DNA from: a virus
Taxonomy: Duplodnaviria > Heunggongvirae > Uroviricota > Caudoviricetes
DNA: 20,165 bases
Reading direction: 5' to 3' (one strand)
Virus record (IMG/VR): IMGVR_UViG_2684622619_000022
Made by a program: the position numbers. Shown in pieces: positions 6,001 through 12,000 of this stretch (within the stretch, counting starts at the first letter, position 1; each line of letters opens with the position of its first letter).

Positions 6001-9000
6001 TTAAATAGTTAGTCAGAGCTAACTTCTTGTATTGTTAGTTACACTGCCTAACCTACAGACAAAAAGCCCCTCAGAATTGTGCTTACGCGCTCAAATTTCA
6101 CTGCTGGGGATTTTTACGTACATTCAACCCAAAAAGTGACCAAAAAAGTTCTTACAGAGTTGACGTTACGTTGACGTTGTTTTCTGAAAATGATCCCTTG
6201 GTGACTTATTTTATGTATTTGATTTTACGTTTTTTCTTTAATGTTTTATCACTTTAAACTAACGTCAACTTATCCTTATAGAGCGATTAATTTCTATAAG
6301 TACTTTTTCTCAAAATTTGATTTTTACGGATGGAAGTCCATCAAAGAAACGTCATTTTTTTCTAAGACTTTGATCTTTCGTTAACGGTGTTAGTGGGGAC
6401 TTCGGTCGTCGAGCGCGATGCGCTTCTGACCGTTTCAATGGATAGGTTCGCCTTCTTGCGCCTCTCGCGGCGTTTGCCGCGCTCCGCGCTTTTGGCGGTT
6501 TGGCAGGCATATCTCTCTTATTATTGGTCGTTTTTTGCACCGCCTTGTCACGATCTGTCACTACTAGTAGTAATGGTCATAACCTCCGCTTTCTCTTTTG
6601 GCTCTGGATGCTCTCACTCGTGCTCTTCTTAACATCCTTAACAGTGGGTGGGTTTGTACTTTGTTCGAGTTTATTATCTGTGAGGATAGTAATTCCCTGC
6701 GCTCTGTCTCTGCCTCTTTGGTGACCGCTATCACTGATAAATCCCAATCGTGTTTGCTAATTAACGGTGCTTGGAACGGGGTGATTGGTGATCGATTTAT
6801 GTCTTGTCGTTTCAATGTACGCTGTATCTGTCGCTTAGCTTTGTAGTTGTCTTTCCTTGATGCCTGAACGGCTTTTAGTATGCGTCTTACAGCATGAAAG
6901 CCAGTGATAGAAAGTGTTTCTTTTTTTATCTCATGCCGCGCCCAGCCATTCGAATAACCCCAAACGTTGGCATCTGACCAATCATATAGGCTCTTGCTCG
7001 CCTCTCTATTAAAGTCATTTAACTTAGTTTCGGGCTTTGCCATGTAATCAATCTGTTTACCTATACACTTTGTAGGCTCTGAATATTGCTGACCTTTCAA
7101 ATCTAGATCCCACTGGGGAGGAACATTTGATGGGATTGCATTGTTTGCCAGTGTTACCCATTTGCTGACAATTTTGCCAGCTTGCCCATTAATGCTTCTT
7201 TCGTTCACCATGATTATTGCGTGTACATGCGGCTCTGACTGGTGTTGAGCCCACTCCATGACGTAAACCCACTGATTGCCTTGAATGAAAGCGATATTGC
7301 ATCGCTTGATACCAGAGTTCAGTCGCTGGAATCGCAGGTTTCAGACCATGAAACGCGCATTAATGCTCTGGAGTATGCCACTACGCGCAAGAAGTCAGAG
7401 GTTGTTTACTCTGGCGTATCAGTAACCATCCCGACAGCGCCGACCAACCTTGTTAGCCTGCTGAAAACGCTTACGCCGTCATCCGGGACGTTGGCACCAT
7501 TCTTCGACACCGTTAACAACAAGATGGTTGTGTTCAACGAGAACAAAACCTTGTTCTTCAAGCTGTCGATTGTCGGGACGTGGCCCAGCGGAACCGCCAA
7601 CAGGTCAATGCAGCTAACATTCTCCGGTTCTGTTCCTGACACGCTAGTAAGCAGTCGCAACTCGGCAACAACAACCGACAACATCCTGTTAGCTACGTTC
7701 TTCAGCGTGGATAAAGACGGCTTTCTTGCCACAAATGGCAGCACGTTAACCATTCAGTCGAATGGCGCGGCGTTTACTGCCACAACCATCAAAATCATTG
7801 CGGAGCAGTGATGGAAATAAAGCTCATCGATAACCCGGTGAAACTTGCAGAATTCCTTAACAACCCGGTAAACACGGGGAATATCGTAGACAGTGGAGAT
7901 AAATACTACATCAAGCCTGATGCGGTATATCTCGGCATCTACGAAGGATTAGTGCTGGCTGGAGTTCATGAAGTGCGTAACTTCTGGCATAGCGTTGTTG
8001 AATGCCATGCGGTGTATGACCCCGGATTCCGTGGCGAATATGCACTACAAGGGCATCGATTATTCTGCAAATGGCTTCTCGAAAACTCACCATTCCTTAA
8101 CAGCATCACCATGGTTCCTGACACCACCAAATACGGACGGGCAATTATCCGTTTGCTTGGCGCTACCCGTGTTGGTCACCTTGATGATGCGTACATGAGT
8201 AACGGAAAACCGGTAGGAATCACCCTCTATCAATTACCTCGTTCGAAATATGAGGAGCTATTAAATGTTAGTACTTAGCGAAAGCTTCAAGAATAAATTG
8301 CTTCCCATGAATGGGTATATGAAAGGCGGCAGCGACTCCGGATCTAAAGCCCAGGCACGCGCAACTGAAAAGGGCATCGAACTGCAGCGTGAAATGTGGC
8401 AGACGAACATGCAAAACCTTGCACCGTTCACGCCACTCGCTCAGCAGTACGTATCACAGTTGCAGAATCTTTCCTCTCTTCAGGGGCAAGGTCAGGCGCT
8501 TAACCAGTATTACAACTCTCAGCAGTATAAAGACCTTGCAGGGCAGGCGCGCTATCAGAGTCTGGCAGCAGCAGAGGCAACGGGTGGATTAGGCTCTACA
8601 GCAACAGGAAACCAGTTAGCAGCAATCGCACCTACACTCGGTCAAAACTGGCTGTCAGGTCAGATGAACAACTACAACAATCTGGCAAATATCGGCCTTG
8701 GTGCTCTTACAGGTCAGGCAAACGCCGGACAGAACTACGCTAACAATGTCAGCCAATTGTATCAACAGCAGGCGGCAGCATCGGCAGCAAATGCGAATAA
8801 GCCTTCAGGCCTACAGAGTTTTGCTACAGGTGCCATTGGTGGGGCCGCATCAGGTGCAATGATTGGTAGTGCAGTTCCTGTTATTGGGACTGGTATTGGT
8901 GCTCTTGCTGGCGGTGTTATCGGTGGTCTTGGATCATTGTTTTAAGGTGGGAATATGGCTACTTGGCAACAAGGAATCAACTCAGGCGGTTTTCTTGCTG

Positions 9001-12000
9001 GTATCGGTGGGCAAAACTCAAATGCGCCAAAGGCAAGTGATGTAAGTGAGGCGTTGGCCTATATTCGCCAGAACAACGAAATGGAGCGTTCAGGTCGCAA
9101 TAACATCGGCCTTCAGGCGTTGCAGGGACTTGGTAGTGTCGCTCAAACATCTCAAGCCGCAAAGCAACAGGAAGCGGATGCTGCATTCCAAAAAGAATAT
9201 GCGGCAGCCATCCAGTCCGGCGATCGACAGCAGGTTCGAGATCTGATGACCAAATATCCTGGTCAATTAGAGAAGATTCAGTCTGGTATGAAGTGGGCAG
9301 ACGAAGACCAGCGCAATTCTATCGGCACCTTAGCGGCTGGCGCACGCCTTGCGGCCTCGTCTCCAGAAGCAATGCAATCATGGCTGCAAAACAACGCCAA
9401 GGAACTGGCGCGCGTCGGTGTTGACCCTAACAACGTTGCTCAGATGTATCAGCAGAATCCTTCAGGGTTTGGTGAGTTTGTTTATCACCTTGGGATGGCT
9501 GCTCTCGGTCCGATTGACTACTTCAATGTTCAGGACAAGATGGCTGGTCGTGAGATTGACCGAGGCAGGCTGGCAGAGACAATCCGCAGCAATCAGGCCG
9601 GAGATTTTGAGTTTAAGTCAAAGCCGTCATATTTAGTTCTATCATTTGCTGAAATATCATCTGTAGTCTTTATCCTAATGTCTGTCTATATGGTGGCAAA
9701 AAGTCAAAATAGCAATGGATTACAGTATGATGCGCTTTTTATACCATCAATGGCCTTTTCAATATTAGTGTTTTCGTTTAATGGTGGTATTATTTCAAAA
9801 ATAATATCAAATAAAGTTATGATACTTTTAGGTGATGCTTCTTTTTCATTTTACTTGGTCCATACTATAGTAATCAGTACATTGAGCAAGTTCTTTAATG
9901 TTTCTGGTCTTGGTGCTATAAGTGTAATTAAATTTATAGTAATGGCTCTGTTTGCTTCATTATTTATATCAATAATGATGTATTTGTTTTTTGAAAAGCC
10001 AATAAACAATAAGCTAAGAAAATGGTGGAGTGGATTTAAGAATGATGTTTCAACCACTCGAGTTGAAAAAATAGAAGGCAATCAATTATAGCAATTAAAG
10101 TATGATAAGCATTTATGATTGGTTTTAATGAAATGCATATGTAGTTAACATATAATAATTGCATTTTGTTATTGTTGATGGTTTCTTGGTGTAAGAAATC
10201 CTGAGAAGTGAAAAGCTTTGCTATATGTGCAAGGCTTTTCTTTTTTATAAGAATCGTTGTAATAACTACTCCACCTTCCCATCAAGCCAGTCCGCCCACC
10301 ACTGCATCATTTCTCTGCGCTTATCGAGATACTGAGCATGGTTGTAAATCCCACGCACAGATCCGCCGTTGGCATGTGCTAGTTGCACTTCAATAGCGTC
10401 AGCAGGCCATTCGTGCTCGTTCATAATCGTGCTGAATTCATGCCTGAATCCGTGACCGCTTTCCAGACCTTCATAGCCGATTTGTTTGATCACAAGCAGT
10501 ACAGCGTTCTCACAGATTGACTTCTTCTTATCGTTGCGCCCGGCAAAAACAAACTCTGATACTGGTTTAGTGATGGAGCTTAGCGTAGTGAGAAGTTCAA
10601 CAACCTGGTCCGACATCGGAACCACATGAATCTTGCGTCCCTTCATCACACTGGCCTCGATGGTGATAATCCTGTTTTCAAAATCGACGTTCTTCCATTG
10701 CATGGAACGAAGCTCTTTCGTTCTTAGTGCTGTGTAGCGTAAAACTTTGGTCGCAATGAGAGATACGATACTTCCTGAAAATGTTGCAAGTGCTTTGTTG
10801 AATGCCGGGATCTGGTCGGCAGGTAAAAACGGGAAGTTCTTCTTGCGGTATCCCTTCATGGCTTCAGCAAGGTCAGGTGCCGGGTTATATTTAGCCCTTC
10901 CGGTGACAATAGCGTAACGGAAAACCTCGCCGCATCTTCTGCGTGCTTTGTTGGCTCGCTCCATTGCCCCGCGATCTTCAAATCTGCGGATTACTTCCAG
11001 CAGTTGCATCGGCTCAATATCCTGAATTTCAAGGCCGCCGATGATAGGTAAAATGTCGTCATCAAACATTTTTGCAAGTTCAGTCGCATAGGCGGCTGAC
11101 CAGACTTGCCTCTTATGCTCGTACCATTCCTTGTAAATCGCACTAAAGGAATTGTTGTTAGACGAAGCCTTTTTCGCCTTTACCGGATCGATGCCAACCG
11201 AGATGTCTTTCCTCGCAGTCCATGCTTTATCCCTTGCCTCTTGCAAAGTCATAAGCGGATATTTTCCGACGGTCAGGATTTTCTCCTTACCGTCAATCTT
11301 GTAGCGAAGCTGCCATACCTTTTTCCCTGATACAGGGACATAAAGGTACAGGCCATTACCATCGAGTAGGCGGTATGGTTTTTCTTTCGGCTTTGCTGCT
11401 TCAATCTGCTTAACGGTGAGCATGGGTAAAAATCCGGTGGGTAAAATTATTTTATCCACTTTTTACCCGTCATGGCGTGCGGCTGTCAACGATCTGACGC
11501 GAACCATGACGAACTGTGAATCTACGGAAGGCTTGATATTCAGGGGATTTTGCGGACTGGTACGGATGGAGGCGAACTGATAAATGGTGTCCCCTGCAGG
11601 AATCGAACCTGCAATTAGCCCTTAGGAGGGGCTCGTTATATCCATTTAACTAAGAGGACATTGTTGCGTATTGATTTTGGTTGTTCACCATATGACTGAT
11701 AATACCGTCTTTATGGTTTTAAAATCAAGGTGTAAGTTTGTTTTTGTTCATGGTTGATTATCTTCTTTTGCGTTGAAAAGTGTTTTGTTCACTTGCTAAT
11801 GCGTACATATTGAGTACAGAATACATTATAAACTTGTGTACAGGATATAAAGCATTGGCACTGAGCGACACCAAACTACGAGGCCTCTACGGAAAACCCT
11901 ACTCTGGCCCTGCTGAAATCACCGATGGTGACGGGTTAAGTGTGCGGATTACTCCAGCAGGAACTATCACGTTTCAGTACCGTTATCGCTGGAATGGTAA

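Follow-up and report, generated by a model that had tools for sequence, protein, structure and literature searches.

DNA ejection by P22-like phages involves a trans-envelope conduit of gp7, gp20 and gp16, and P22 gp20 that lacks its last 33 or 66 amino acids gives rise to non-functional virions (PMC10461980). In the argW-integrating, P22-like phage Sf6, the slot between the tailspike gene and the integrase gene is taken by oac, which encodes an O-antigen acetyltransferase of the acyltransferase-3 (AT3) family (PF01757). Proteins of this family span the membrane with ten helices in an N-in/C-in topology (PMC9833829), and the motifs R/K-X10-H, FFxISG and RxxR in transmembrane helices (TMHs) 1-3 are essential in OafA, OafB and Oac (PMC7448272; PMC3467182; PMC9833829). 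The argW site of Escherichia coli Sakai is occupied by the prophage Sp16 (Shringi et al., PMC3519850), which has been listed among the prophages too degraded for family assignment and is neither excised nor packaged (Asadulghani et al., PMC2669165). Here we analyze a stretch of 20,165 nucleotides of E. coli O157:H7 DNA, recorded as IMG/VR virus IMGVR_UViG_2684622619_000022 and referred to in its full length as the window, in which an open reading frame (ORF) adjoining the integrase gene intS and argW joins the N-terminal half of a gp20-type ejection protein to the C-terminal part of an AT3 acyltransferase.

We consider it highly probable that this chimera is a by-product of prophage decay, brought about by a deletion of about 9 kb, and most likely an inert relic. 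The parents of both halves, the exact junction, the loss of the catalytic motifs and the clonal distribution of the fusion are presented below, followed by the readings that compete with this one and by the prophage remnant in which the chimera resides.

Two Unrelated Domains in One Reading Frame

The chimera and its parts are located as follows.

8955..10091, plus strand: chimeric ORF of 378 amino acids with an ATG start, equal to Sakai ECs_3232 and RefSeq WP_000257010.1
8955..9604, plus strand: gp20-type N-terminal part, 216 codons
9604..9605, no strand: deletion junction, with GAT (Asp) as junction codon 217
9605..10091, plus strand: acyltransferase C-terminal part, residues 215-375 of 375 (161 residues), with four hydrophobic segments and the natural stop codon
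10092..10265, plus strand: AT-rich 3' tail of the acyltransferase moron, G+C 0.27
10210-10240: terminator-like hairpin with T-run, after the stop codon of the chimera

Amino acids 12-217 match the Pfam family Inj_translocase (PF16928, P22 gp20 type) with 219 bits (E=7.6e-65, cut-off 29.7), and the match spans profile positions 1-207 of 218, so that this N-terminal domain is nearly complete. Amino acids 230-343 match Acyl_transf_3 (PF01757) with 25.9 bits (E=6e-6) over profile positions 215-325 of 326 only. With no more than a third of the domain left, the score does not reach the gathering threshold of 31, and the segment does not amount to a complete ten-helix domain. The C-terminal 161 residues were therefore searched alone, and an exhaustive HMMER search of 1.84 billion representative proteins returned 1,267 matches at E<=1e-3. 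These align consistently at about residues 220-360 of proteins of 350-390 amino acids, and the nine full-length matches that were scanned carry Acyl_transf_3 over their full length and no other domain. Among the matches listed, only the query itself (P0002) aligns at the fusion coordinates (218-378 of 378 amino acids) and bears both domains. The PHROG families divide in the same manner, phrog_917 and phrog_2534 (gp20 type) matching the chimera over 1-217 and phrog_3333 (O-acetyltransferase) matching its C-terminal part at positions 224-368 of 372. The NCBIfam model toxin_SdpC scored 20 bits on the chimera, where 99.2 are required, and this match was dismissed as chance. By sequence the chimera resembles no solved structure, and a single-sequence AlphaFold2 prediction (mean predicted local distance difference test score 51.7, predicted template modeling score 0.31) was too poor for fold comparison.

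Base composition marks the same division, with a G+C content of 0.522 in 8955-9604 and of 0.294 in 9605-10091, and the sliding profile descends from about 0.53 near 9500 to 0.28 near 9700. The initial annotation, made from the sequence alone, had described 8955-10091 as an in-frame fusion of an ejection protein with an acyltransferase, and the two unrelated Pfam domains in one ORF, with a parent for each half, confirm it. Aligned separately, residues 1-216 lead to gp20 proteins and the C-terminal part leads to acyltransferases, including the Acyl_transf_3 profile and full-length AT3 proteins. The motif LGDASFSFYLVH, which had been likened to the acyltransferase-3 signature, is located within the segment that matches this profile. 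The change of character had been placed near 9610-9640; the abrupt drop in G+C is indeed found, but the true breakpoint lies slightly upstream, at 9604|9605 in codon 217.

The Gp20 Parent

The chimera shares 97.7% amino acid identity with residues 1-216 of the 433-aa gp20 of phage vB_EcoP-720R6, after which the two proteins diverge completely, and the nucleotide identity to this parent ends abruptly after window base 9604. For the 431-aa protein of Sf6 gene 12 the identity over the same part is 74%. Intact relatives measure 431, 433 and 491 amino acids, so that the 216 retained residues fall short of a full-length gp20. The gp7-gp20-gp16 set is likewise incomplete, gp7 lying upstream of the chimera and gp16 being absent: blastn gave no match between the window and interval 8315-17323 of the intact composite introduced below. 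The element also has no tailspike gene and lacks almost every other virion gene. From this gene content and the truncation we infer that the chimera cannot be a functional ejection protein.

The Acyltransferase Parent

An intact parent gene is found on the IMG/VR contig IMGVR_UViG_2545824644_000015 (loci L008 and L012), with 99.4% nucleotide identity over the retained part. The retained fragment differs from this relative at three bases, one change being synonymous and two non-synonymous. Locus L008 is arranged in the following order.

4709-7249: tailspike gene
7359-8486 (within 7323-8486): AT3 acyltransferase gene
8659-9816: integrase gene int

The acyltransferase comprises 375 amino acids from its first ATG, matches Acyl_transf_3 over positions 3-325 with 101.5 bits, and is flanked by an 846-aa tailspike with a Head_binding domain and by IntS. 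The parent carries R-X10-H at residues 13-24, FFILSG at 53 and RVFR at 83, and all three motifs are absent in the chimera. By analogy with OafA, OafB and Oac, the fragment should thus be unable to work as an acyltransferase, since the motifs essential to those enzymes are gone. A hydropathy scan with the same method and threshold predicts eight hydrophobic segments for the parent and four for the chimera, and these four probably correspond to TMH7-10 of the AT3 fold.

Close relatives of the fragment are few. It is 38% identical to the O-acetyltransferase protein of TL-2011b, and the only relative of its AT-rich DNA in 50,697 phage records is a 133-nt match at 71% in TL-2011b. A scan of Genome Taxonomy Database (GTDB) genome contigs gave no relative of the C-terminal part, and a word-index protein search with that part returned only a 101-aa partial E. 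coli 'acyltransferase'. The intact 375-aa protein itself is very rare, with one copy in IMG/VR and none in the 50,697 phage records, 5,426 complete E. coli genomes and the GTDB species representatives. Among the 1.84 billion representatives, the nearest relative other than itself shares 53% identity with it in the C-terminal part. The G+C content of its gene is 0.315, against 0.48 for the adjacent int.

A Probable Deletion That Matched Two Frames

The junction reads GGAGA|TTTTGAG, where the gp20 parent has GGAGA|AGCAC and the acyltransferase parent CTATA|TTTTGAG. The microhomology at the crossover is the single A at 9604, which is a signature of illegitimate recombination rather than of site-specific or homologous exchange. 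In order to place both breakpoints on one intact map, L012 and L008 were stitched into a composite of 19,141 nt, which carries, in this order, needle, gp14-like gene, gp7, gp20 (491 aa), gp16, three small ORFs, tailspike, acyltransferase and int. By blastn, window 9527-9604 corresponds to composite 8237-8314, and window 9604-11423 to composite 17324-19141. The fusion thus equals a deletion of 9,010 bp in that architecture, a size that is approximate for the ancestor, and the origin by deletion proposed in the initial annotation is supported by the two breakpoints that the intact relative holds at this distance.

The ancestor would have been an Sf6/HK620-like (Lederbergvirus) prophage at argW with needle, gp14, gp7, gp20, gp16, an immunity-I region and tailspike, and between tailspike and int it would have held an AT-rich moron, co-directional with the late genes, for a standalone AT3 acyltransferase of 375 amino acids. 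A single illegitimate recombination event over 1 nt of microhomology would then have removed about 9 kb, from gp20 codon 217 to acyltransferase codon 214. Lost with it would be the second half of gp20, the gp16 gene, the immunity-I region, the tailspike gene and, on the acyltransferase side, the promoter and TMH1-6. The frames would have matched by chance, so that translation from the gp20 ATG would reach the stop codon of the acyltransferase. One junction phase gives the extension of 161 codons and the other two stop after 1 and 9 codons; with one phase in three open, an in-frame fusion (prior about one third) needs no special explanation. A fusion of this kind was possible at all because the acyltransferase gene is co-oriented with the late genes, whereas oac of Sf6 occupies the same slot on the opposite strand. 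The product, if made, would consist of the gp20 N-domain and a four-helix membrane stub, and a membrane-anchored protein is therefore possible. In the AT3 topology the junction falls into the cytoplasmic loop after TMH6, which would leave the gp20 domain facing the cytoplasm.

One Fusion in a Clonal Lineage

The junction (9400-9900) is covered to at least 80% and with at least 99% identity in 309 of the 5,426 complete E. coli genomes. The AT-rich part (9640-10265) is likewise present in 309 genomes, one copy each, with 99.8-100% identity among the matches listed, where it is annotated as 'phage DNA ejection protein'; the two sets are presumably the same genomes. None of the 5,426 genomes matches the N-terminal two-thirds of the acyltransferase gene, which the chimera lacks, even at a word size of 11 bases. 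Every strain named in the matches listed is O157:H7, and the pig isolate NJS001, which has no serotype in its name, carries an identical element.

Weighing the Readings

Several observations do not sit easily with an inert relic. The start codon and the upstream ribosome-binding sequence GGTGGGA are intact, as are the two upstream late genes (gp14-like and gp7), which would permit read-through transcription and translation. The ORF is intact in every copy compared (8 loci identical) and is annotated as a coding sequence, not as a pseudogene, in the records examined. On the side of the deletion, no contig found is ancestral on both sides, and the gp20 of the composite is only 51% identical to the chimera overall. 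The last point makes the ancestor a mosaic and the 9,010 bp an approximation; to judge from the sequence relationships, it would have combined ejection genes of the 720R6 type with this acyltransferase-int module. The clonality of O157:H7 renders the perfect conservation of the ORF uninformative on selection, either way. So far as transcription is concerned, the retained DNA includes neither the late promoter region of the phage nor the 5' region of the moron, and the promoter-like sites in 6300-10400 (7 found, 6.6 expected) stand at chance level and are uninformative on expression. We regard the chimera as probably not expressed and probably without function.

If the fusion were expressed after all, it could have been co-opted. 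Four predicted hydrophobic segments would tether a nearly complete gp20 N-domain (profile 1-207 of 218) to the membrane, where it might act as a decoy or dominant-negative partner that disturbs the gp7-gp20-gp16 conduit, leading to SieA-like superinfection exclusion of P22-like phages. In keeping with this reading, no copy examined has a damaged ORF, start codon or ribosome-binding sequence. P22 SieA, a prophage-encoded inner-membrane protein acting on gp20 and gp16 of the incoming phage (PMC10461980), would be the nearest functional analogue for this speculative reading; SieA is however a dedicated gene with demonstrated activity and shows no sequence relationship to the chimera, which is an accidental fusion. 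Against it, promoter-like signals do not rise above chance, the late promoter and the moron promoter are outside the retained DNA, and the topology deduced above would put the gp20 domain in the cytoplasm, whereas the conduit forms in the periplasm. No PADLOC defense model matches the chimera (E<=0.01), the fusion belongs to a single clonal lineage without a sign of selection, the changes relative to the parent are few (two non-synonymous, one synonymous), and the searchable literature holds no mention of the gene under ECs3232 or WP_000257010. We thus think co-option of this kind very improbable, and give slightly less credence again to the stronger form in which the fusion is translated and persists as useful by poisoning the DNA-ejection conduit of superinfecting P22/Sf6/HK620-like phages; were it true, a decaying prophage would have made a new exclusion protein out of two broken genes.

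A genuine two-domain family of membrane-anchored ejection proteins is a still fainter prospect. One family does match over the full length, phrog_28221 ('unknown function', 1-378 of 378, 891 bits), which nominally is the single full-length match that, according to the initial annotation, would refute the fusion. Its length is exactly that of the chimera and the score is one of near-identity, while neighboring ORFs of Sp16 have equally private PHROGs, and phrog_28221 most likely represents nothing other than the chimera, entered as a family of its own. Among the matches listed from the 1.84 billion representatives, no other protein aligns at the fusion coordinates and none of the nine others scanned carries both domains, separate parents exist for both halves, and the acyltransferase part is the last third of its domain only. 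An assembly or sequencing artefact at the junction, which the abrupt change in composition and nothing further would suggest, has practically no chance of being correct, given that the identical junction appears in 309 independently assembled complete genomes, Sakai and EC4115 included, and in five IMG/VR contigs. The inert by-product of a deletion remains the reading that we prefer, and the case is one of ordinary prophage erosion compounded by an annotation error.

The Host Element at argW

The chimera resides in a short prophage remnant, delimited and furnished by the following features.

3033..3055, no strand: distal attachment site; its 23 nt copy the 3' end of argW except for one missing C
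7275..7811, plus strand: tail needle gene without its N-terminus, a second, independent truncation of the same prophage
7811-8278, plus strand: gp14-like gene (DUF2824), intact, upstream of the chimera
8265-8945, plus strand: gp7 ejection protein gene, intact, directly upstream of the chimera
10266..11423, minus strand: integrase IntS (Sf6/HK620 type), 96-97% nucleotide identity to int of Sf6, HK620 and CUS-3
11584-11599: exact Sf6 attP core ATGGTGTCCCCTGCAG, at the int-proximal attachment site
11585..11659, minus strand: tRNA-Arg (CCU) gene argW

The two attachment-site copies define the remnant as 3033..11607, about 8.55 kb. In the Sakai genome (NC_002695.2) the feature 'prophage Sp16; P22-like phage' occupies 3193118..3201668 (8,551 bp), and ECs_3232 within it holds the identical ORF of 1,137 nt. 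Sp13 of Sakai was ruled out as the identity of the element, as Sp13 is P2-like and the argW element is Sp16.

Other parts of the remnant also bear signs of erosion. Homology of the needle gene to intact genes begins at about 7283, and the 189-aa GTG-started ORF at 7242-7811 is a truncation artefact. The truncated needle gene abuts a divergent ORF at 6564-7211 ('phage replication protein' in Sakai), which marks a second, independent deletion or rearrangement junction. The remnant also contains a DNA invertase/resolvase gene (3190-3816, minus strand) and a gene for a 470-aa protein (4482-5894), whose sole match is phrog_13435 (unknown function) and which has no PADLOC match. In strain PV15-279 this 470-aa gene is frameshifted and a copy of the insertion sequence IS1203 lies between the replication-protein fragment and the needle fragment, so that decay is continuing.

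On the far side of argW, 11636-20165 form the left end of a Stx2a-converting prophage that is 99.9% identical to VT2phi_272, Stx2a_F765 and PA2 and brings a second tyrosine integrase (11855-13024, plus strand) and early genes. With this prophage opposite Sp16, the tRNA gene argW has a different prophage at either end. In PV15-279, NJS001 and Sakai yfdC follows directly after argW, and the window is covered to at least 80% in just 63 of the 5,426 genomes. Two antitoxin genes are annotated in the early region, one of the ParD family (15966-16223) and one of the HigA family (16638-16943), and the annotation of 15966-16943 shows no evident gene for a cognate toxin. Positions 1-1435 of the VT2phi_272 genome (HQ424691.1 / NC_028656.1) equal window 10266-11700 and are 100% identical to Sp16 intS and the tRNA-Arg gene. 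The record labels these 1,435 bp 'putative integrase / attL', and those of Stx2a_F765 and PA2 begin at about window 11636. Part of the VT2phi_272 record thus appears to be Sp16 and host DNA, and the integrase that it attributes to the phage appears to be the wrong one. At the other end, window 1-262 lie inside a copy of IS1203, where other O157:H7 strains have cscA (sucrose-6-phosphate hydrolase). In three of 15 genomes listed the match begins at base 1, in the remaining 12 at base 317, and the IS1203 insertion beside the csc sucrose genes appears to be strain-specific.

Consequences for Annotation

The main value of the case concerns annotation. The chimera is named 'phage DNA ejection protein' by NCBI, 'Acyltransferase' by UniRef and 'phage DNA injection protein' in Sakai, where the reference annotation carries no fusion flag on ECs_3232; a protein of hundreds of O157:H7 genomes should instead be flagged as a fusion or a pseudogene. 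The locus further records, base by base, the reduction of a P22-like argW prophage of the serotype-converting type to the 8.55 kb of Sp16. An AT3 acyltransferase moron, of which the 5,426 complete E. coli genomes contain no intact copy, is shown to have been part of the ancestor, and the 9604/9605 junction serves as a precise marker of Sp16 in carrier genomes.

Comparison with Known Systems

Sf6 Oac and the parent of the C-terminal part belong to the same AT3 family, and each has its gene between tailspike and int in a P22-like phage that integrates at argW. With Oac and other standalone AT3 O-antigen acetyltransferases the parent also shares the AT-rich moron character and the motifs R-X10-H, FFxISG and RxxR. 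The parallel to serotype-converting phages drawn from the sequence alone therefore holds, the acyltransferase of the intact relative lying between the tailspike gene and an argW-specific integrase. Of the label 'O-antigen' or 'Oac-like', the family and the position stand, but the parent is no orthologue of Sf6 Oac, to which it shows 25% identity over the N-terminal 157 amino acids (E=2e-7, pairwise) and an opposite orientation. Position and family are also what suggest O antigen as its substrate. Measured against an oac module of the Sf6 type, the window has kept only the 3' fragment beside int (residues 215-375), with every essential motif lost.

A similar relationship connects the N-terminal part to P22 gp20 and the Sf6 gene 12 protein (PF16928). 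The homologous N-terminal 216 residues and the position of the gene directly after gp7 are shared; the intact proteins keep their C-terminal half and the partner gp16, whereas the chimera is without both. The closest counterpart of the locus as a whole is Sp16 of Sakai, which is the same element by its IntS, gp7, DUF2824 protein, truncated needle gene, resolvase, argW site and size of 8.55 kb. Between Sakai and the strain of the window the element is unchanged, and the latter differs in the extra Stx2a prophage across argW.

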